Source: Actinomycetes bacterium (GTDB taxonomy: Bacteria > Actinomycetota > Aquicultoria > UBA3085 > Oleimmundimicrobiaceae). Taken from it: a stretch of 64,000 bases of DNA. The stretch lies in contig JAUWKI010000002.1 in the NCBI GenBank assembly GCA_030614255.1, forward strand, positions 4,449 through 68,448. Reading direction: 5' to 3'. Position numbers and translations under genes: made by a program. This document shows positions 5,752-60,404 of the stretch, in pieces. The stretch's first letter is position 1. Each line of letters opens with the position of its first letter. Under the pieces are notes generated by a model. It ran no database searches and was not told where the DNA came from. It worked only from the letters and a program-made list of their open reading frames with translations.

Positions 5752-5825
5752 ACACTCCTTATAGTCATCAGTTGACAGTCGGTAGTCGGGAGCACATTCT
5801 AATTAAAAAATAAAGTATAAGAATG

Positions 5826-5871: not shown

Positions 5872-5965
5872 GCAAAATTCTTAAAAAGATCATCTAGAAA
5901 CTTTTTTAATTCTTAATTTTAGTTTTTCGCTTTTCATTCTCCATTTTTCACTTAACTTTACCCTT

Positions 5966-8344: not shown

Positions 8345-8374
8345 TTGACAATCAAAATAAATAAAATCTATAAT
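8345..8374 (+). promoter_or_regulatory. Near-consensus sigma-A type promoter: TTGACA, 18 nt spacer, TATAAT
   Basis: ttgaca atcaaaataaataaaatc tataat, about 35 nt upstream of an AAGGGTGA RBS and the ATG at 8410. Confidence 0.7.
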
Positions 8375-8409: not shown

Positions 8410-8808
8410 ATGATGAGCGATAGGGTATGTAAGGAATTTCAAGGCACCGTTTCTGATTACTTAATAAGACATAGAAGCATTCTCGATGTAATGTCGAAAC
8501 TTCAAGAAGCAACCGCTCACGTGAACAGAGCGATAACCAAAGCCGTGACCAGTTGTGGGTGTCTAAAAATTGAGGCCTCGAAACAACCAATTCCTAAAGA
8601 AGCAAACTTATCTGAAATAGCAGAATATGTGCGAACTCACCTGGAAGGAAACCTTTGTCCCAACTGCCTTGATACTATCGAGGCTGAATTGGGAAACACA
8701 ATGTTCTACGTAGCAGCCACATGTACCCTTTTAAATTTAGACCTCGAAAAAATTATTACTCATGAGAACGATCGAATTTCCACTCTGGGCGTTTACAGCC
8801 TAACTTAA
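8410..8808 (+). CDS. Small Cys-rich hypothetical protein (C-x41-CGC-x31-CPNC) encoded on the opposite strand inside the radA-disA-yacL-ispDF block
   Basis: 132 aa ORF with a strong promoter and RBS. Possible metal-binding Cys motifs. I do not recognise a family. Confidence 0.5.
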   Translation: MMSDRVCKEFQGTVSDYLIRHRSILDVMSKLQEATAHVNRAITKAVTSCGCLKIEASKQPIPKEANLSEIAEYVRTHLEGNLCPNCLDTIEAELGNTMFYVAATCTLLNLDLEKIITHENDRISTLGVYSLT

Positions 8809-8826
8809 GTCAGCTACCAGTCTTCC

Positions 8827-8875
8827 GCCATCAGCCATCTGCCACCAGCCATCTGCCATCTGCCATCAGCCATCT
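8827..8875. repeat. Perfectly phased heptanucleotide tandem repeat (GCCATCW)x7
   Basis: gccatca gccatct gccacca gccatct gccatct gccatca gccatct. It is flanked by further 7-periodic spacer (gttaaag gttgaaa gtggaaa ... on the minus strand) up to the disA stop. Confidence 0.85.
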
Positions 8876-8971
8876 AGTTTTTTTGACTCTTGACTAGCGA
8901 AGTGGTTGACTTTTGACTTTCCTTTTACCTTATACCCTTATCTTTACTTTCCACTTTCAACCTTTAACTAA

Positions 8972-10042
8972 TCAGATATATCTTTCCAAAACACTGTGGT
9001 CTCGGAGTCTTTTTAGTCCTTCCCAGATAGCTTTCGCTCTAACCTCACCTATACCCTCAACCTCATCTAAATCTTCTATACTCGCTTCGAGAATAGTCTG
9101 CAAGTCCCCGAATTTCTTTATGATTTTACTCACTATTGTTGCCGGAAGACGTGGAATCTGTCTAAGGAGACGATAACCCCTGGGATGAACAACCTTGTCC
9201 AGAATATTTACAGTATCGCCCTCATATCCAAGTATCCGACATATATTGGTTAAATCCAGCAATTCATCGGAAGAAAGTTCTCCAAGTTCTCTCCCGGTTT
9301 TTTCAGCCCGCCTGCTGTCCTTGCAATAATCTTTTAGAACCATCATATTGTCTTCCTCGACGTGAGCCATAAGCTCATCTAACTGCATCTTTATCAATCG
9401 ACCTTCGGAGCCAAGCTCGCTTATGTAGCGTTCTACTTCATCAGAAACCCTTTTCACCATTTCAAACCTTTGAATAATCGTCGTTACATCCAAGAGCGTT
9501 ACAAAATCCTGAAATTCAAGAGAATTCAAGTTGGAAGAGACCTGATTGAGTCTAACTTTATATTTCTCAAGTGTCTGCAAAGCCTGATTGGCCTTGGCCA
9601 AAAGCGCTCTGATATCTTCGAGCGCATATTTGTAATTGTTCCAATATAATGATATTGCATCCCGTCGCTGTGAAATTGAGACTACTAAAGCGTTGGTCTG
9701 CTTCGCCACCCGCTCAGCGGTTCTGTGTCGCATTCCGGTTTCATCCGTTGTAAGCGTTGGATCTGGCACAAGGTGAATATTTGCACCCAAAATTTTCTTC
9801 AAATCCTCATCTAATACAATGGCACCATCCATCTTGGTTAATTCAAAAAGCTTCTGAGGTTGGAACTCAACATCCAGTCTAAAACCACCATCACAAAGCT
9901 TCCCAACTGCTTCAACATCGCCAATAACAATTAAGGCTCCTGTTTTCGCGCTTATAATTTGCTCCAAAGCATCGCGCACTGCAGTGCCTGGAGCCACCTT
10001 CTTCAAAACATCAATTAAAGTCGTCTTCTTTTTACCGCTCAA
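8972..10042 (-). CDS. disA: DNA integrity scanning protein DisA (diadenylate cyclase)
   Basis: 356 aa with a DAC domain (N-terminal GALIVIG... region) and a C-terminal HhH region. Follows radA. Confidence 0.9.
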   Translation of the reverse strand: MSGKKKTTLIDVLKKVAPGTAVRDALEQIISAKTGALIVIGDVEAVGKLCDGGFRLDVEFQPQKLFELTKMDGAIVLDEDLKKILGANIHLVPDPTLTTDETGMRHRTAERVAKQTNALVVSISQRRDAISLYWNNYKYALEDIRALLAKANQALQTLEKYKVRLNQVSSNLNSLEFQDFVTLLDVTTIIQRFEMVKRVSDEVERYISELGSEGRLIKMQLDELMAHVEEDNMMVLKDYCKDSRRAEKTGRELGELSSDELLDLTNICRILGYEGDTVNILDKVVHPRGYRLLRQIPRLPATIVSKIIKKFGDLQTILEASIEDLDEVEGIGEVRAKAIWEGLKRLRDHSVLERYI

Positions 10043-22205: not shown

Positions 22206-24044
22206 TTACTGAAATGTTATATATGCAAATTTTGAAGTCCCGTCATCTAATTCTATTCTCAATCGCCAGGTTCCCCTCGTAAGATCTTTTGTCCTGAGTT
22301 TGTAAAAATATTTATTGACAAAGCTATTATAATCAAACTCGTTGTCAGTTACCTTCGAGCTACTTGAGGTAGCCGCTATCTCTTCGCCAAAAGTACCGTC
22401 GATGTTCTTCTTCGCTAACCAGAGCTTGGCAGATGCATCGGTAACAAAATCACCATTAGCATCCCACAACTGGAATTTTACGGATAAGCCACTGCCCAAT
22501 TTAAAAACACTGCTTCCATCGCTTCTAATGGGTGGAAAAACACCACTATAAACATAACGAACATAATAAGTTCTCGTCTCTATTGTTTGGTTTCCGGCTT
22601 TATCCACCGCAACCACACTAAAAGTCTTTTCACCAACCGTAGCTGTGTCAATTACTCCCCCGTCAGGAATAGTTGCCGTCACCGAAGCTATCCCCGAAAG
22701 CGAATCATCGGCCAGCCAGCCAGCTAAAGCCGGCTCGTTCAATATATACTCAGCTCCATCAACCGGTGTAATTATTGAGACCTCTGGCGCTGTATTATCT
22801 ATTAATATATCAACTTCATTACTGGTTATTACACTTTCCAAATCGAAGTCGAACTTCTGGATTCGGTCGTTGTCTGTGTCGGCCACATAAACATTGCCGC
22901 TTGAATCAACGGTTATACCTATTGGATTCCGGAACTCGCCATCGTATAAGAAGCCGTAACTTCCCCATTTCCCAAGGAAAATGCCGTTTGAGTCGAACTT
23001 CTGGATTCGATGGTTAGAAAAATCGACTACATAAACATTGCCGCTTGAGTCGACGGCTATACCTATTGGATTCCGGAACTCGCCATCGTATAAGAAGCCG
23101 TAACTTCCCCATTCGCCAAGAAACTTGCCGTCTGAGTCGAATTTCTGGATTCGGTCGTTATTACAGTCAGCCACATAAACATTGCCGTCTGAGTCGACGG
23201 TTACACCAGTGGGGCAATCAAACTCACCTTTATCCGTACCGTAACTTCCCCATTCGGTGAGGGAATCACCATCTGAGTCGAACTTCTGGATTCGGTGGTT
23301 ATTACAGTCAGTCACATAAATATTGCCGCTTGAGTTGACAGTTACACCGAACGGGTCAAATGGGCCGTCGAGTGTACCATAACTTCCCCATTCGGTGAGG
23401 AAATTGCCATCCGAGTCGAACTTCTGGATTCGGTGGTTGCCCCGATCAGCCACATAAATATTGCCGCTTGAGTCGACGGCTACACCAGTGGGACAGTTAA
23501 ACTGGCCATCGTCTATGTCAAGACTTTCCCATTCGAAGAAATTGCCATTTGAGTCAAATTTCTGGATTCGGTGATTGTACGTGTCGGCCACATAAACATT
23601 GCCGCTTGAGTCAACTACTATGTCATATGGGCGGTTAAATTGGTCGTCGAGTGTACCAGAACCTTCCCATTTCAGAGTAAACTTATAACTTCCAATAGAA
23701 ACATTGAGTCTGGAGACGTAGTCCCCTTCATTAACTGAACCGCCATCATCGTCTGTCCCGTCCCAGATGATGCTATGAGTTCCACTGTTTTGAACACCAC
23801 CGTTGACAGTTCTGATAGGCTCACTTTCCAAATCATAATCCGAATCATAAATTTCAAGCGAAACATTGCCATCGTCAACATCGATTAAAGTGTAATTTAT
23901 GCTGGTGCTACCCGTCTCTGAATTAAAAGCATAAGGATCTACGACAATGTCAATTATAGCTGAATTACCAGATGCTAACGAAGTTGGTAGTAAAAGGGCT
24001 AAAAATAAAACCACAACTGTAAAACTTGTAACTATTTTCTTCAT
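22206..24044 (-). CDS. Secreted NHL-repeat beta-propeller protein
   Basis: Signal peptide MKKIVTSFTVVVLFLALLLPTSLASG. At least 6 NHL-type repeats (GxFxxPxGVAVDSSGNIYVAD..NHRIQKFD). The DNA also carries about 130 bp tandem repeats from 22850 to 23620. Confidence 0.85.
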   Translation of the reverse strand: MKKIVTSFTVVVLFLALLLPTSLASGNSAIIDIVVDPYAFNSETGSTSINYTLIDVDDGNVSLEIYDSDYDLESEPIRTVNGGVQNSGTHSIIWDGTDDDGGSVNEGDYVSRLNVSIGSYKFTLKWEGSGTLDDQFNRPYDIVVDSSGNVYVADTYNHRIQKFDSNGNFFEWESLDIDDGQFNCPTGVAVDSSGNIYVADRGNHRIQKFDSDGNFLTEWGSYGTLDGPFDPFGVTVNSSGNIYVTDCNNHRIQKFDSDGDSLTEWGSYGTDKGEFDCPTGVTVDSDGNVYVADCNNDRIQKFDSDGKFLGEWGSYGFLYDGEFRNPIGIAVDSSGNVYVVDFSNHRIQKFDSNGIFLGKWGSYGFLYDGEFRNPIGITVDSSGNVYVADTDNDRIQKFDFDLESVITSNEVDILIDNTAPEVSIITPVDGAEYILNEPALAGWLADDSLSGIASVTATIPDGGVIDTATVGEKTFSVVAVDKAGNQTIETRTYYVRYVYSGVFPPIRSDGSSVFKLGSGLSVKFQLWDANGDFVTDASAKLWLAKKNIDGTFGEEIAATSSSSKVTDNEFDYNSFVNKYFYKLRTKDLTRGTWRLRIELDDGTSKFAYITFQ

Positions 24045-25114: not shown

Positions 25115-25353
25115 CTTAATCCTCCATTGATATATTTATTATAAACATGGATAAATTATAACAGATACCGATTAATGAATTGAGTATAGAAGAAGAAACA
25201 AAAGTTAGGAGTCAAAAATTAAGATTAAGAAGAGATAATCATGGAAGTCATTGCGAGAGGTAAGGGCAGAATAATTTCGCCGGTAAACGCAGCTTCCTGT
25301 ACCAGGAAGAGATTACCTCACTTTGTTCACAATGATTTTTATTATAAATAAGG

Positions 25354-32227: not shown

Positions 32228-32235
32228 AAAACACC

Positions 32236-32290
32236 CTTAAGTCGGTAGTATGCCTAGCTTCCAGCCCCCAGTCTCCAGCCGCCAGCATAA
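32236..32290. repeat. Heptad-periodic spacer (CTTCCAG CCCCCAG TCTCCAG CCGCCAG) between panB and panC, including the GTCGGTAGT word
   Basis: Direct reading shows 7-bp phasing of CCAG. The unit CCCCAGT is identical to cyanobacterial STRR1. Confidence 0.7.
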
Positions 32291-32461
32291 AAATTAATAA
32301 ATAAGAATGAAAAACCATAATATAAAATTAAAAATGCTTTTGTACTATTTTTGTTTTTTACTCTTTACCACTTGCCAGATTCTTATTCATACATCATTTG
32401 TTTTTCCTGGTAGCTAACGACTGATAACTGGTGGCTTCCTTCCTCTTTACCCTTTCTTTTA

Positions 32462-34778: not shown

Positions 34779-34794
34779 TTAAACACCCCTGTTA

Positions 34795-34978
34795 TTAGCT
34801 ACCAGTCACCAGCTTACAGCCACCAGGATAAAGTGCAAGACTTGAAATTCAGAGAATGGATTTGTGGTTAGAAAGTTTGGTTTGCCGGATTATTGGTTGG
34901 ATAGTTTTCCCCATACTCCAACATTCTGCTCTATTTTTAGTTTTGCTGAAAGCTGAGAGCTGGAGGCTGACGGCTAAA
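34795..34978. repeat. Heptad-periodic spacer between folP and folK (TAGCTAC CAGTCAC CAGCTTA CAGCCAC; GCTGAAA GCTGAGA GCTGGAG GCTGACG)
   Basis: Two phased 7-mer arrays flank a GTTTGGT/GTTGGAT-rich middle. The 200 bp gap sits inside a presumably co-transcribed folate operon. Confidence 0.7.
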
Positions 34979-36810: not shown

Positions 36811-36841
36811 AACAAAAAGGCCACCCGATTAACAGCGGCCC
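36811..36841 (-). terminator. Intrinsic-terminator-like hairpin (GGCCGC...GGGTGGCC followed by TTTTTGTTATTTT) about 50 nt upstream of the folE start. Candidate attenuator or riboswitch expression platform
   Basis: On the minus strand: gataagGGCCGCtgttaatcggGTGGCCtttttgttattttggggg. The hairpin plus U-tract sits inside the 5' leader of folE. Confidence 0.55.
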
Positions 36842-36965
36842 TTATCTTGCCGACTTAAGTCGGCCCTGGTTTTAGTTATCATCATAAGGCCAATGCTTAG
36901 GATGCTATATTATTAAACCAATCACCGGCTCTCATCCTCCAGGAAAATCAAAAATAAAAGCTTTT

Positions 36966-37258
36966 TATTGGTTTTTTAAAACCCGAGTGGGTTGGGTAGA
37001 CAGCGACCCACCTCCGACACTCCGTCGGGCAGGCTCTCCAGAGGCGGGGTTTCGACTGAAGCTATCTATTGTTTTTAGTTTTTAAAACTCGGTGGGTCGG
37101 ACAAATCGAAACTTGAGGCCGCCCCGATGAAACGAGTGGAAGGCTGGAAAGTGAACAAAGTGAGTGTCCAAGAATCTGTCTGAGCGTAAGCGAGTTATTC
37201 TCGGCCCGCCCGGAGCGAGTAAAGTCGCGGATACGGCCGAGTGTGGAGCATATTCGAC
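36966..37258. other. GC-rich, highly structured ~290 bp non-coding island with a 105-nt-spaced direct repeat (TTTTAAAACYCGRGTGGGTYGG), many local hairpins and a long-range GTGGGTCGG/CGACCCAC complement. Possible structured RNA or regulatory leader of the fol operon
   Basis: Local GC content is far above the ~40% background. No ORF with a homolog. It lies between the ftsH terminator and the folE attenuator. Confidence 0.35.
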
Positions 37259-37369
37259 CCACAAAAAAGAAATAACTAATTAAACAAACAATAACAAATC
37301 AGCTGTTAAGATTAAAAACGAGATTACTTCGCCGTGCCTACAGGATAAACCGGCGGTTTATAGCACTAA

Positions 37370-37400
37370 CAAAAAGGCCACCCGTCAAACGAGTGGCCTT
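37370..37400 (-). terminator. Rho-independent terminator of ftsH (GGCCACTCGTTTGACGGGTGGCC + TTTTTGTT on the minus strand)
   Basis: Perfect 8-bp GC stem followed by a U-run, 20 nt after the ftsH stop. Confidence 0.8.
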
Positions 37401-37421
37401 TCTTACAGATAAATGTCCTGC

Positions 37422-41587: not shown

Positions 41588-41687
41588 AATTTCTTTAAGG
41601 TAATGCTCATCATAAAATCAACATCTATTTCTCGGGTAAACTATGCTTGGAAATCATTTTTATTTTTTCATTATCGTTTTACATTCT

Positions 41688-41748
41688 TCATTTTTCATTT
41701 TTTCGTAAGACCAGGCAACCCTGTACCAGGTATCTGGCATTTAACTTC
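41688..41748 (-). repeat. Dispersed ~60 bp element R1 copy 1 (TTTTCGTAAGACCAGGCAACCCTGTACCAGGTATCTGGCATTTAACTT)
   Basis: About 90% identical to 51971-52036. Contains a CCAG-ATAC-CTGG mini-hairpin. Lies downstream of the amidase gene and upstream of tilS. Confidence 0.6.
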
Positions 41749-41759
41749 ACTCTATATCC

Positions 41760-42851
41760 TTACTTAAGGTATTTAACTATCCCGTTAAACAACCCCCGAG
41801 CCGCTTTATTCTGGAACGATTCGTCATTTAAGAGGGTATCTTCTTCGGGGTTGCTCAAAAAACAAATCTCAGACAGAACAACTGGAACCTGCGACCAATT
41901 AAAGCCCGTAATATCTCCTCTTGCAATTATTCCTTTATTTGCCCGCCCGCAAGCGATGACCATCTCCCGCTGAATAAGTTGAGCAGCTTTCCGGCTTTCA
42001 TCGTATATAGACCCACACCATTCATTTCTGGAAGGATAAAGAGTCATGATACCATTTGATGAAGTGCTTGAACTGCCATTACAATGAATTCGGACAAACA
42101 AGTCGGCCTTTGCCTCGTTGGCAATTTGAGCTCTTTCAGAGTTACTAATGTTTACATCGTTAGTAGTCCGAACCATCACAACCTTAATCCCTTCACTTTC
42201 AAGCATTTTCTTCAATTTTAACCCTATCTGTAAAACTATCTCATATTCGGGAGTTCTTGAATTTACTCCGGTTCCTCCTCCTCTGCATCTCTCTTTCGTT
42301 GTGGTAGAACCCGGTCCGATAGATTCTGGAGAGTTATCTGCATGCCCCTGATGACCTGGGTCTATACAGACTATAAACTCAAACGATGTTACCTTTAAGT
42401 CCTCAAAATCTTCGGAGTCCTCCTCGAATGCCTCAGGGGTAGCTTCCCCAAGCCCTTCGGAAAGATCAGTTTCAACATCTGTTGGAACTTCCTTAGCAGA
42501 TGTTCTCTCTGCCCCTTTGCTCACCGATATGACGATTAACTTGCCTCTTTTTACTCGACTTCCTGAGTCAGGTTTTTGAGAAATAACAGTTCCCTCGGGT
42601 AAATCGCTGAATTTTTCTGAAACTTCAAGATCAAACCCACTTTGGGAAACCAGACCTTTTGCTTCTTCTAAATTTTTTCCAACCAAATTCGGGACGACCT
42701 CGGAAACAATAACGTTTGTATAGATATAATAAAAACCAAGAATCAAAAGTATCAGTAGAAAGAAAACGCTGAGAAGTCCCCGCTTTCGGCGTTTTCTGTA
42801 AATTACGATGCCGTGTTTTAGTTTAACTTTTGGAGTAAAATTTCGCTTCAC
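41760..42851 (-). CDS. Membrane-anchored PASTA-domain / N-acetylmuramoyl-L-alanine amidase (Amidase_3) fusion protein
   Basis: N-terminal TM segment, then a PASTA-like domain (VPNLVGKNLEEAKGLVSQSGFDLEV), then a C-terminal amidase_3 core (CIDPGHQGH...NGSSS...). Confidence 0.7.
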   Translation of the reverse strand: MKRNFTPKVKLKHGIVIYRKRRKRGLLSVFFLLILLILGFYYIYTNVIVSEVVPNLVGKNLEEAKGLVSQSGFDLEVSEKFSDLPEGTVISQKPDSGSRVKRGKLIVISVSKGAERTSAKEVPTDVETDLSEGLGEATPEAFEEDSEDFEDLKVTSFEFIVCIDPGHQGHADNSPESIGPGSTTTKERCRGGGTGVNSRTPEYEIVLQIGLKLKKMLESEGIKVVMVRTTNDVNISNSERAQIANEAKADLFVRIHCNGSSSTSSNGIMTLYPSRNEWCGSIYDESRKAAQLIQREMVIACGRANKGIIARGDITGFNWSQVPVVLSEICFLSNPEEDTLLNDESFQNKAARGLFNGIVKYLK

Positions 42852-46953: not shown

Positions 46954-47015
46954 GCCCGCCTCCCCGCCTGCCTACGCCTATGATGCCGTTAGGCATTGGC
47001 GGGCAGGTGGCGGAG
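46954..47015. terminator. Extended GC-rich inverted repeat (GCCCGCCTCCCCGCCTGCC ... GGCGGGCAGGTGGCGGAG) downstream of the radical SAM gene
   Basis: Member of the CCCGCC/GGCGGG hairpin family, with an inner GCCTA/TAGGC hairpin. Confidence 0.5.
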
Positions 47016-47033
47016 TTTATGACTAAAATAGTT

Positions 47034-47110
47034 ATTGGTCATTGGTTCTTGGTTATTAGCTGGGGGCTGAAGACTGGAAGCTGGAAGCTGCGCTATCGAC
47101 TAATTGGGGT
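47034..47110. repeat. Eleven phased heptamers upstream of mqnA (ATTGGTC ATTGGTT CTTGGTT ATTAGCT GGGGGCT GAAGACT GGAAGCT GGAAGCT GCGCTAT CGACTAA TTGGGGT)
   Basis: Direct reading. The TTGGTCA unit equals cyanobacterial STRR2. Confidence 0.8.
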
Positions 47111-47116
47111 GTAAAA

Positions 47117-51867: not shown

Positions 51868-51970
51868 GAACCACGCCCCCTTACCTCTCGATACAATTAT
51901 AACGTAAGTGCCCTTAATAAGACTTCAATTTTTCAACACAGGCATCAACTATAGATAAAACTTCCTTATG

Positions 51971-52036
51971 ATTTTCATTCTCCACTTTTTCGTAAGACCA
52001 GGCAACTCTGTGCCAGGTATTTGGCATTTAACTTTA
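51971..52036 (-). repeat. Dispersed ~60 bp element R1 copy 2
   Basis: About 90% identical to 41688-41748. Lies about 100 nt upstream of the AmrS-like gene start. Confidence 0.6.
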
Positions 52037-52039
52037 CCC

Positions 52040-52260
52040 ATTACCCTATACCAACCAGTCGGTAGTTTCTTAGTGGGAAGTCGGCAGTTTGCCGGCCAAA
52101 TTACTGATTTTACTATATTCCATATTCTATACTCTATATTCCATTCACCATCTGCTATCTGCCCCGCCAAAGGCGGGCAAGCATCTGCTATCAGCTATCT
52201 AGTCGGTAGTCCGTAGTCTGGAGTCGGTAGTTTGTTGGCTAGATTGCTGGTCTTACTATA
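52040..52260. repeat. 220 bp spacer built from phased heptamers (ATAYTCY units; AGTCGGT AGTCCGT AGTCTGG AGTCGGT) plus four GTCGGYAGT words and a CCCGCC-AAAG-GCGGG hairpin
   Basis: Direct reading. Lies between tRNA-Arg and the AmrS-like gene. Confidence 0.75.
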
Positions 52261-52262
52261 CT

Positions 52263-52338
52263 CTATACTGTTTGGCGCGCTCGACGGGATTCGAACCCAC
52301 GACACCAGGCTCCGGAGGCCTGTGCTCTATCCACTGAG
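52263..52338 (-). tRNA. tRNA-Arg (anticodon CCG)
   Basis: 76 nt cloverleaf GCGCTCGTAGCTCAGTGGATAGAGCA...CAGGC-CTCCGGA-GCCTG...GGTTCGAATCC...CGAGCGCGCCA with CCA encoded. Confidence 0.85.
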
Positions 52339-52446
52339 CTACGAGCGCATAAAACCAGTTAACAATAAGTAGTTGGTGGTTAATAGCAAGTGATGGTGAC
52401 CGTTTCTTCTATCTTTACTACTTATTTATTATGCTCGTACAATTAA

Positions 52447-58679: not shown

Positions 58680-58916
58680 CTTGAGATTGCCGCGTCGCCT
58701 AACGGCTCCTCCCGCCAGAGGCGGGCAGGCATAATGACGGGGAAGTGTTGCTCTAATCTCTCTACTTGATTTCTACTGAGTGTTGATATTGAAATTAATG
58801 GTAATTCATTGAAACTAATAGTAATTTATGGTAACTAACTGAAATTTCCACCAATTACCACTTAATCTCCACTTAATTACAACTTAATTTCTATTTAATC
58901 CTTACCCCTATCCCCT
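58680..58916. repeat. Heptad-periodic spacer between the gltX copy 2 stop and tRNA-Gln (TTAAT/GGGTAAW units), with a CCCGCC-AGAG-GCGGG hairpin
   Basis: Minus strand reads GGGTAAT GGGTAAA GGGGATA GGGTAAG GATTAAA ... in phase for more than 150 nt. Confidence 0.7.
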
Positions 58917-60404
58917 TTACCCATTACCCTCTCGCTCTTCAGTTGCCTCTTGTGCCAATTCTATTCTCTTTAATGTCTTTTCTTTTCCAAGCACTTCAAT
59001 TGTTTCAAAAAGCGGAGGGCTTACTGTTCTTCCGGTTACGGCAACCCGAATCGGTTGAAAGACAAGTTTCGGCTTTACATCAAGCTCTGCAGGAATAGAG
59101 CGCAAGGCGGCTTCCACATTCTCGGTATCAAATTTTTCAAGTTCCTTTAACTTTTCATGCGCGGCTTCAAGCACTTTCGAAACTTCCGGGTTCTTTAATA
59201 CCTTATCTGCTGTTTTAGGATCAATTCCAATCTCCTCTTTAAAGAAGAAGTCTGTAAGTTCCAAAACATCTGTTAAACACTTTATCCGCTCTTGCACCAA
59301 AGCAGTTATCGTTTTAAGATTACCAATCCCGAAATCAGAGGGTTTTGCAAAAAAGCCGGCATCAACCCAGATTGGAATCAGCAAATCCATCAACTTATCA
59401 ACCGATAATTCACGAATATAACATCCGTTCATCCACTGAAGTTTGATATTATCAAAAATAGCGGGGTTTTTAGTAATTTTATCAAGTGTAAATTTTTCTA
59501 TTAAATCTTGGACTGAGAATATGGTCGTCTTCTCATCGTAAGACCAGCCCAAGAGAGCAAGATAGTTTAGTATCGCCCCCGGCAAATAGCCATCTTTCTT
59601 ATATTCCTCCACCGATGTGGCTCCGTGGCGTTTACTTAAAGGTTTTCCATCGGAACCCAAGATCATCGGCAGATGAGTAAAGACCGGAACTGATAAACCG
59701 AGCGCTTCATATAGAAGAATTTGTTTCGGTGTATTTGTTAGATGGTCAACACCTCTTATTATATGTGTTATTTTCATGGCGGCGTCATCGATAACGGCAG
59801 CGAAATTATATGTTGGAAGACCGTTTGCCCTGACGAGAATGAAATCCTCTAAAACAGTATTCTGAAAGACAACGTCCCCTCTTATGGTATCCGAGACAAT
59901 TGTTTCCCCTTCTTTCGGGCAAGCGAAGCGGATGGCACATTTTCGCCCTTCCTCTTCATAATCTTTTTGCTCCTTTTCAGTAAGTTTTCTGCACCGACCA
60001 TCATAGCCCGGAGGTTTGCCCGATTTTAAAGCCAACTTTCTCCGCTCTTCTAATTCCTCCGGGCTACAATAACATTTATAAGCCATCCTCGCCTTAAGCA
60101 ATTCAGCAACAGCTTCTTCATAAAAAGACAGACGTTCCGTTTGATGATAAGGCCCATAGGAGCCCCCGACCTCAGGGCCTTCGTCCCAATCCAGTCCCAG
60201 CCATTTAAGAGACGAAATGATTGCACTAGTGGCCTCTTCCGTAGAACGGCTTCTGTCAGTATCCTCTATCCTTAAGATAAACTTGCCACCGTGATGCCTG
60301 GCAAAAAGCCAGTTATAAAGAGCAGTTCTTGCCCCCCCGATGTGCAATACTCCGGTAGGGCTCGGAGCAAAACGAACCCGTATTTTTTTACTCAAAACAA
60401 TCAC
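58917..60404 (-). CDS. gltX: Glutamyl-tRNA synthetase (copy 2), candidate tRNA-Gln-charging non-discriminating GluRS
   Basis: 495 aa with HIGH-type motif (PSPTGVLHIG) and KLSKR. Paralog of the gltX at 4285. Lies immediately upstream of tRNA-Gln on the same strand. Confidence 0.9.
   Translation of the reverse strand: MIVLSKKIRVRFAPSPTGVLHIGGARTALYNWLFARHHGGKFILRIEDTDRSRSTEEATSAIISSLKWLGLDWDEGPEVGGSYGPYHQTERLSFYEEAVAELLKARMAYKCYCSPEELEERRKLALKSGKPPGYDGRCRKLTEKEQKDYEEEGRKCAIRFACPKEGETIVSDTIRGDVVFQNTVLEDFILVRANGLPTYNFAAVIDDAAMKITHIIRGVDHLTNTPKQILLYEALGLSVPVFTHLPMILGSDGKPLSKRHGATSVEEYKKDGYLPGAILNYLALLGWSYDEKTTIFSVQDLIEKFTLDKITKNPAIFDNIKLQWMNGCYIRELSVDKLMDLLIPIWVDAGFFAKPSDFGIGNLKTITALVQERIKCLTDVLELTDFFFKEEIGIDPKTADKVLKNPEVSKVLEAAHEKLKELEKFDTENVEAALRSIPAELDVKPKLVFQPIRVAVTGRTVSPPLFETIEVLGKEKTLKRIELAQEATEEREGNG

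Follow-up and report, generated by a model that had tools for sequence, protein, structure and literature searches.

A length-variable heptanucleotide array beside disA belongs to an AG-phased repeat family in an uncultured actinomycete lineage

We analyzed a tandem array of 7-nucleotide units at positions 8827–8875 of a 64,000-nucleotide stretch (the window) of contig JAUWKI010000002.1, from an uncultured Actinomycetes bacterium, where the array lies between the convergent disA gene and a small gene for a cysteine-rich protein. The array changes length by whole heptads, both between near-identical strains and between species, and is limited to non-coding DNA past the stop codons of both genes. 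It is a member of a family of arrays that carry AG at a fixed phase, with one unit type locally amplified, and it is not a gene switch. The explanation that we favor, and that we hold to be fairly probable, is that the locus is a heptanucleotide simple sequence repeat (SSR) produced by recent amplification of AGCCATC/TGCCATC within lineage-wide AG-phased arrays at gene boundaries, with no switching effect. This kind of repeat is already known, and what is new is the lineage and the AG-phased consensus that the arrays share.

On the forward strand the core array reads GCCATCA GCCATCT GCCACCA GCCATCT GCCATCT GCCATCA GCCATCT, seven heptads in phase. A preliminary description of this DNA had called it a perfect (GCCATCW)x7 repeat; the coordinates, phase and seven copies stand, but the word perfect does not, because copy 3 (8841–8847) is GCCACCA, one base off, so that GCCATCW fits 6/7 units and 48/49 bases. 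The tract is also longer than was stated there, nine heptads once two degenerate leading units in the array phase, AGCTACC (8812–8818) and AGTCTTC (8819–8825), are counted; the first of these begins 3 nt past the stop codon of the small open reading frame (ORF). Read in the AG phase, the whole tract is AGCTACC AGTCTTC cGCCATC AGCCATC tGCCACC AGCCATC tGCCATC tGCCATC AGCCATC. Tandem Repeats Finder reported the core at period 7 (6.9 copies, score 68) and also at periods 14 and 21 (score 84), the top scores in the window leaving aside the 138–279-nt coding repeats at 22847–23673. The 14-mer GCCATCWGCCATCW, with up to two mismatches allowed, gave eight matches against 1.1 expected, and six of the eight fall inside the core array. 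Under independent and identically distributed bases the probability of at least six tandem units is ~1e-18, and no shuffle reached the observed count. A chance origin of the array is excluded.

Heptad periodicity runs through the whole 163-nt spacer from the small-ORF stop to the disA stop. Between the core and disA (8876–8971), the lag-7 self-match is 0.52 versus 0.22–0.39 for every other lag in the range 1–21, and none of 20,000 shuffles was as high, which bears out the earlier remark that degenerate heptads continue up to the disA stop. The units in this part are TTGACTC TTGACTA, next TTGACTT TTGACTT, next CCTTTTA CCTTATA CCCTTAT, and further degenerate ones. The two TTGACTN pairs (8883–8896 and 8906–8919) read AGTCAAN on the minus strand, that of disA, which is the AGY-N4 form directed away from disA. 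The degenerate heptads at 8918–8971 are pyrimidine-rich on the forward strand and purine-rich in the disA sense; GGTATAAGGTA (8926–8936) within them belongs to a second heptad family described below, and 8942–8967 (CTTTACTTTCCACTTTCAACCTTTAA) is conserved in the relatives L002 and L033. With its head-to-tail 7-nt units, its above-chance length and its whole-unit length polymorphism between close strains, the array has the defining properties of an SSR.

Using exact-protein look-ups, we found the same locus in independent assemblies. In three of these (L012, SRR14865926; L013, ERZ4219663; L014, SRR12623519) the spacer is identical to the window base for base. In the fourth, L015 (ERZ23499000), it is 142 nt long versus 163 nt, a shortening of 21 nt or exactly three units, and the flanks carry 2 substitutions in 1297 bp (99.85% identity). 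The L015 tract reads ACTACCA GCCATCT GCCATCA GCCATCT GCCATCT GCCATCT, and the window tract aligned to it reads GCTACCA GTCTTCC GCCATCA GCCATCT GCCACCA GCCATCT GCCATCT GCCATCA GCCATCT; to turn one unit order into the other takes a minimum of two indel events as well as substitutions, all within 63 nt. The window allele lacks the L015 junction ACTACCAGCCATCT, so L015 represents a haplotype of its own rather than a collapsed assembly.

The same trend extends across species of the lineage, which we place in Actinomycetota; Candidatus (Ca.) Aquicultoria; Ca. Subteraquimicrobiales. DisA of the window is 83% identical to that of Ca. Oleimmundimicrobium americanum UBA3085 (L001) and 80% identical to that of the Actinomycetota metagenome-assembled genome (MAG) L002. 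Spacer lengths form a series of 56 nt (L002 and L033, identical), 101 nt (L023), ~103 nt (L001), 142 nt (L015) and 163 nt (window), in which the extra length between species consists of heptads and the core CTT(T)ACTTTCCACTTTCA(G/A)CCTTTAA is kept beside the disA stop. One further relative contig, of the same species as L002, yielded no new spacer allele. The preliminary description had proposed that the array is prone to slippage and could act as a length-variable spacer, and had named comparison of strains and MAGs as one check; the three-unit difference in L015 and the series growing by heptads agree with that proposal, and copy number is not invariant, with three assemblies sharing the window allele.

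Variation of this kind was seen at the focal array. In the variant strain ERZ23499000 the shorter degenerate arrays at 47031–47090 differ by substitutions only, which would be expected of slippage that depends on run purity. No length variation was seen at six other arrays, compared for most arrays in ERZ4219663 and SRR12623519, for the 5763 array in ERZ4219663 and SRR12623522, and in the variant strain for the 47059 array only.

The focal array is one instance of a pattern that is spread over the window's intergenic regions. There, the self-match reaches 0.318 at lag 7 and has echoes at lags 14 and 21, compared with ~0.28 at other lags; the lag-7 value for coding DNA is 0.245. When all spacers were read in heptads, many degenerate arrays emerged, mostly with AG at a fixed phase. 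The pattern AGY-N4 repeated four times has 12 matches in the window versus 0.07 expected. Runs of at least four in-phase AGY units occur seven times at period 7, all intergenic, and not once in the window at periods 5, 6, 8, 9 or 10; runs of at least three units comprise eight intergenic cases, one at a gene edge and none in coding DNA. An unbiased scan of all 16 dinucleotides ranked AG (complement CT) as the top phased dinucleotide at period 7 and at no other period. Including the focal array, there are eight AG-phased loci in 64 kb, in addition to other heptad families, and none of them lies in coding DNA. From 34 units at the seven non-focal loci we derived the unit consensus AGYYNNC, or (AGY-N4)n. 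Position 3 is a pyrimidine in 33/34 units, position 4 in 30/34 and position 7 in 29/34 (C in 21, T in 8), and positions 5 and 6 are random; the AG itself is invariant by the way the arrays were selected, whereas the pyrimidines at positions 3, 4 and 7 were not all selected for. Identical units common to several loci amounted to five pairs versus a mean of 3.5 under a null based on column composition (p = 0.27), a count in which the two leading focal units were mis-indexed and which we do not use as evidence.

The other members of the family lie close to a variety of genes. At 5763–5793 (+), AGTCATC AGTTGAC AGTCGGT AGTCGGG AGC stands 11 nt upstream of the gltX start, so that the mRNA sense is (ACT-N4)n abutting the ribosome-binding site (RBS), and this leader array has orthologues in four species (L001, L023, L026 and L033). 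AGCTTCC AGCCCCC AGTCTCC AGCCGCC AGC at 32256–32286 (+) has the panC start 28 nt downstream, and AGCCACC AGTTATC AGTCGTT AGC at 32413–32436 (−) lies, in sense orientation, 25 nt past the panB stop. Similarly, AGCTACC AGTCACC AGCTTAC AGC at 34797–34820 (+) has the folK (HPPK) start 18 nt downstream, and AGCCGTC AGCCTCC AGCTCTC AGCTTTC AGC at 34945–34975 (−) is in sense 3 nt past the folP stop. AGCTTCC AGCTTCC AGTCTTC AGCCCCC AGC at 47059–47089 (−) is 27 nt upstream of a plus-strand mqnA-like (VitK2_biosynth) gene, and AGTCGGT AGTCCGT AGTCTGG AGTCGGT AGT at 52201–52231 (+) belongs to a cluster of heptads at 52036–52260 near a tRNA-Arg gene. Both leading focal units recur in these arrays, AGCTACC at 32413 (−) and 34797 (+) and AGTCTTC in the 47059 (−) array, and units related to the focal core are found at 52147–52200 (GCTATCA GCTATCT and ACCATCT GCTATCT).

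Relatives including Ca. Oleimmundimicrobium have the same lag-7 excess and AG-phased arrays. Directly past the small-ORF stop, L001 has AGTAGAT AGTTCTT AGTCGGA AGTTTGT and L002 has AGTAATC AGTCGGT AGTGCGA AGTTGGT AGTTTGT; in L001, GCTATCT GCCATCT adjoins the disA stop.

In all seven arrays that lie no more than 30 nt from a gene boundary, the AGY strand runs from the gene end into the spacer, with the unit in sense after stops (focal, 8812; 32413; 34945) and antisense before starts, as (RCT-N4)n ahead of the RBS (5763, 32256, 34797 and 47059), a count that uses a distance cut picked after the data had been seen. Over all arrays in the window the rule holds for 7/9 (one-sided p ~0.09), the exceptions being two arrays at 52072–52231, among them the one at 52201. 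The AGTCAAN and AGTGGAA/AGTAAAG units in the disA-proximal part of the focal spacer are likewise directed away from that gene, and L024 and L026 provide two more cases consistent with the rule. We regard the orientation rule as suggestive only.

Persistence of the AG phase while positions 5 and 6 are free hints at constraint. We considered purifying selection on AGY across species, and small-sample comparisons were mixed or negative: between L023 and L001 the orthologous array has AGT changed to AAT and AGT changed to GGT with the fillers intact, and in the gltX leader ~5/15 ACT positions vary across species versus ~11/20 filler positions, which is not significant. Opposed arrays that flank one spacer pair in the predicted fold, with z = −2.53 for panB-panC, where the 32413 array pairs with the 32256 array, and z = −0.88 for folP-folK. 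The focal spacer has no opposed pairing array, and neither of its strands folds significantly (z = +0.35 and +0.28). Our reading of these observations is that a mutational process builds and resizes the heptads and that their orientation is filtered near starts and stops.

We asked what the array could do at its own locus. It lies 3′ of both stop codons, no ORF of at least 30 aa crosses it, which rules out a coding repeat, and a scan of the spacer found no promoter-like or terminator-like site. The T7 tract immediately 3′ of the array (8878–8884, +) has no stable stem before it and is not a canonical intrinsic terminator, and together with the negative scan and the fold scores this led us to reject an intrinsic terminator or structured RNA in the spacer. 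We also rejected a promoter role for the four TTGACT motifs, which have no acceptable −10 element at 16–18 nt by scan or by eye, and a known RNA family, as a gathering-threshold scan of the whole window gave three tRNAs only. Since no ORF or promoter-like site overlaps the array, steps of 7 nt cannot shift a reading frame or promoter spacing. Under the slippage explanation, slipped-strand mispairing during replication would cause the length changes, mutability would be highest in the longest and purest run, and changes in copy number would switch neither disA nor the small ORF. The array would contribute no more than an unstructured, C-rich and G-poor 3′ untranslated tail of the small-ORF transcript and a distance of variable length between the two convergent transcription units. 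As the spacer has no intrinsic terminator, termination there is probably factor-dependent (Rho-type), although this does not seem to be a conserved function.

Several observations count against this explanation. Three independent assemblies carry the identical allele, so the locus is not hypermutable over short time scales. Simple slippage with neutral decay does not obviously account for the shared direction of the seven boundary arrays, nor for the persistence of in-phase AG, with pyrimidines at the next two positions and C in most units at position 7, while positions 5 and 6 are random. Finally, a general C-richness past stops, as a genome-wide logic of Rho utilization (rut) sites would have it, was considered and rejected, the mean skew in the window being −0.064.

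Contingency SSRs of Haemophilus and Neisseria lie inside the ORFs, promoters or 5′ untranslated regions (UTRs) of the genes they control, which usually encode surface or restriction-modification functions. The focal array shares with them short tandem units and copy-number change by slippage, but it sits past two stops beside housekeeping genes. The preliminary description had raised the idea of a contingency locus at which slippage reversibly switches or tunes disA or the small gene. In favor of this, copy number does differ between strains by whole units, and intergenic SSRs can, by the account in PMC12721329, work through UTRs in some pathogens. However, the array is in no ORF, promoter or 5′ UTR, it shifts neither frame nor promoter spacing, its neighbors are housekeeping or conserved genes and not surface, restriction-modification or host-interaction genes, and one allele is found in three independent assemblies. 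Equivalent arrays beside many unrelated housekeeping genes, among them gltX, panC, folK and the mqnA-like gene, indicate a genome-wide habit and not a locus-specific switch, and we consider a contingency role very improbable. An artefact of assembly or sequencing, conceivable given that short-read mis-assembly of tandem repeats is possible, is refuted by the presence of the array in contigs of four samples from different assemblers (Logan SRR14865926 and SRR12623519; ENA ERZ4219663 and ERZ23499000), three of which are identical to the window over the whole spacer.

It is possible, though in our judgment unlikely, that the arrays with AG every 7 nt are sites for an oligomeric protein that binds RNA or single-stranded DNA and marks or insulates gene boundaries, with copy number setting occupancy. 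The pyrimidine pattern around two random positions, the restriction of the signal to period 7 and AG, the common direction of the boundary arrays with the two further cases in L024 and L026, and the recurrence of arrays at orthologous spacers in species with ~80% DisA identity and different filler all point this way, and an unidentified partner has likewise been proposed for the heptamers of Beggiatoaceae (PMC4679880) and Nostoc (10.1101/2022.06.06.494920). Set against this, AGY is conserved no better than filler in orthologues (L023 against L001, and the gltX leader), the orientation rule weakens when all window arrays are counted, 4/7 focal core units have T or C instead of A at position 1, and no candidate protein was identified, though none was searched for. 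A bolder version, which we think improbable, makes (AGYYNNC)n a lineage-spanning boundary element with a function: as transcripts or single-stranded DNA leave the gene, an oligomeric factor would recognize the AG that recurs every 7 nt on them; arrays would always point from gene to spacer, opposed arrays could pair across it, the short tandemly repeated repetitive (STRR) sequences of cyanobacteria and the TAACTGA repeats of Beggiatoaceae would follow the same logic, and the focal array would be a high-copy site whose number of units sets the occupancy between the two convergent genes. Quite improbable, too, is a selected rut site at which Rho loads and stops the small-ORF transcript before it runs antisense into disA, with copy number tuning the efficiency. 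The RNA after the stop does have rut-like features, being C-rich, G-poor and unstructured (the class criterion is ~60–80 nt): on the forward strand the core array is 44% C and 14% G and the spacer 31% C and 12% G, pyrimidine-C dimers in the spacer number 30 versus 6 on the opposite strand, and its C-over-G skew is the strongest among 28 after-stop regions of the window. There is also no fold and no intrinsic terminator, yet the ORF has a perfect consensus promoter, and the convergent layout would make read-through costly. However, other after-stop arrays of the family are mixed in composition, and since G/T-rich units (AGTCGGT, AGTGCGA, AGTTGGT) make up the orthologous arrays of L001, L002 and L023, a rut function is not conserved at this spacer.

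The regulatory proteins HutP and TRAP offer a different kind of comparison: HutP reads (UAG-N4)3, and TRAP reads spaced GAG/UAG triplets. Like the arrays described here, their sites combine a conserved triplet or dinucleotide at fixed spacing with free filler, and (UAG-N4)n has the same 7-nt period. In contrast, HutP and TRAP sites are single leaders with a cognate protein and a terminator, whereas the arrays here are dispersed and occur in both orientations. STRR units such as CCCCAGT and CAACAGT have an AGT core, for which a string search of the literature gave no confirmation.

Heptanucleotide long SSRs are, by the accounts in PMC4679880 and PMC4692102, the commonest long-SSR class in many bacteria and are ascribed to polymerase slippage, and the ten genomes found richest in 5–11-nt repeats by Mrazek, Guo and Shah in 2007 include, as related in PMC4679880, three Actinobacteria. 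As these accounts present them, such repeats resemble the arrays here in being tandem, over-represented, intergenic, present at multiple loci and variable by whole units between close relatives, with slippage as the proposed cause; they are a statistical class without a common motif, whereas the arrays here share the AG-phased consensus AGYYNNC. The name Oleimmundimicrobium does not occur in the papers searched, and we found no report of such repeats in the lineage.

Closer parallels are found in two groups of dispersed heptamers. TAACTGA direct repeats, described in marine Beggiatoaceae, some Cyanobacteria and Bacteroidetes (MacGregor 2015, PMC4679880), occur in 2–6 copies at many intergenic sites, mostly a few nucleotides upstream of starts (PMC4679880), a placement that the arrays at 5763, 32256, 34797 and 47059 fit. 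The reverse complement TCAGTTA in tandem gives AGTTATC, which is literally a unit at 32413 (−), and the gltX-leader arrays with their (ACT-N4)n mRNA sense abutting the RBS also resemble TAACTGA. Close Cyanothece strains differ "mostly by indels in 7 nt increments" (PMC4679880), and such increments between close strains are common to the focal array and TAACTGA-type repeats. A single fixed heptamer prevails in the BOGUAY genome, which has few related ones, whereas here the filler is variable; furthermore, the focal array lies past stop codons and not before a start, and its unit GCCATCW differs from TAACTGA. The heptamers GGGGA(C/T)T / GGGAATC of Xanthomonas and Nostoc differ strongly in length and sequence among close relatives, can form inverted pairs and have no link to pathogenicity genes (Rehm 2015, PMC4692102); for those of Nostoc, an effect on the expression of recF and recO reporters, exerted through an unidentified partner, is described (10.1101/2022.06.06.494920). 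Like the arrays here, the STRR, Nostoc and Xanthomonas heptamers are dispersed and intergenic, with several unit families per genome and sometimes inverted pairs in one spacer (PMC4692102). They differ in that their units are G-rich and quadruplex-prone, whereas on the opposite strand of the focal unit no G run exceeds GG, so that it has no G3 tracts, and in that the host here is an anaerobic actinomycete lineage, neither a cyanobacterium nor a xanthomonad.

The present arrays extend this phenomenon to an unrelated, uncultured anaerobic actinomycete lineage, and add three useful features, namely the signature of AG every 7 nt, a suggestive orientation rule at boundaries and a direct strain-level length change by whole units. 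Dispersed heptanucleotide repeats have been known for decades in cyanobacteria, xanthomonads and giant sulfur bacteria and, to our knowledge, neither their function nor the mechanism that generates them has been established. An independent lineage is thus available in which to weigh slippage bias against selected binding sites, and differences in length between strains can be expected at such arrays in metagenomes of the group. The AG-phase signature and the orientation regularity are the parts of main genome-wide interest; the focal locus itself is modest.

The genes that flank the focal spacer were correctly described as a convergent disA and a small Cys-rich gene. disA (8972–10042, −; stop codon 8972–8974) encodes DAC, DisA-linker and HHH domains. 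The small ORF (8413–8808, +; TAA stop 8806–8808) encodes 131 aa, and public assemblies take its second Met as the start. With 342 homologues in Actinomycetota MAGs, nearly all of 130–134 aa, it is a real conserved gene; the family is tightly conserved across MAGs of Ca. Aquicultoria, Geothermincolia and Anoxymicrobiaceae and is usually convergent with disA. A Pfam match to DUF1573 fell under the cut-off and NCBIfam gave no match, and sources name the protein inconsistently, as DUF1573 or as NTP pyrophosphohydrolase family. Upstream of the small ORF, TTGACA-18 nt-TATAAT (8345–8374, +) matches a consensus promoter at 12/12 positions, and the predicted transcript would enter the array. The gene order is ispF, ispD, a PIN/TRAM gene and the small ORF, facing disA, radA, clpC, mcsB, mcsA and lysS. 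Two relatives have insertions in this block, which is otherwise syntenic: in L024 (1255–1890) a DUF1287 gene separates the small ORF from disA, and opposed AG-phased arrays stand in the spacer so formed; in L033 (4916–5471) a VapBC toxin-antitoxin pair is inserted upstream of the small ORF.

A second heptad family, GGGTAWA/GGTAWWG, lies in mRNA sense directly past the stops of minus-strand genes, with sites at 1383–1426, 5962–5965, 8926–8936, 32438–32461, 52035–52052 and 58895–58928. Its motif GGTANNNGGTA has six matches versus 0.72 expected, on the minus strand only, the site at 8926–8936 among them.

Some of the spacers that hold AG-phased arrays have further features. The spacers at 32228–32461 and 34779–34978, 200–234 nt long, split the usually contiguous pairs panB|panC and folP|folK, and each is bounded by opposed AG-phased arrays; a MITE-like element (miniature inverted-repeat transposable element) with heptad termini was considered here and rejected, the AT-rich cores of the two spacers having no similarity. 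In the spacer at 46955–47116 (L019–L022), contigs from four samples start at 46955, 46984 (two samples) and 47013, within or beside a GC-rich hairpin and heptad arrays, and in the variant strain 4/5 substitutions over 1685 bp fall inside these 162 nt. The region 51868–52446 holds at least five distinct heptad arrays, densely clustered (ACCCATT/ACCCTAT, AGTCGGT, CTATATT/CCATATT, GCTATCW and AGTCGGT/AGTCCGT), which enclose a small GC hairpin (CCCGCCAAAGGCGGG, ~52162–52180) just downstream of the tRNA-Arg gene (52273–52348, −), and a Logan contig of SRR14865926 ends exactly at 52115, the start of one array.

Elsewhere in the window, two 74-nt intergenic copies at 41687–41760 and 51974–52047 are 85% identical and contain TTTTCGTAAGACCAGGCAACyCTGTrCCAGGTATyTGGCATTTAACTT, with a CCTGGTACAGG-like core also near 25297–25310; no Rfam family matches the element at the gathering threshold, and a role as regulatory RNA or operator is possible. 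The 597 nt at 36825–37421 contain no ORF and have a G+C content of 0.46, high for a spacer of the window; the only Rfam match there is at chance level (Phe_leader, E = 0.63), and the region may hold a non-coding RNA not yet described or the remains of a gene. The ORF at 22206–24044 (−) carries tandem coding repeats of ~138–144 nt at 22847–23673 that correspond to six NHL beta-propeller repeats; its 612-aa product also has a FlgD-Ig-like domain and is an ordinary repeat protein. Finally, tandem repeats of 20–22 nt (ATTGAAACTAATAGTAATTC x2.5 and AATTACAACTTAATCTCCACTT x2.1) lie at 58788–58900, between a tRNA-Gln gene and the stop of the gene at 58917–60404.

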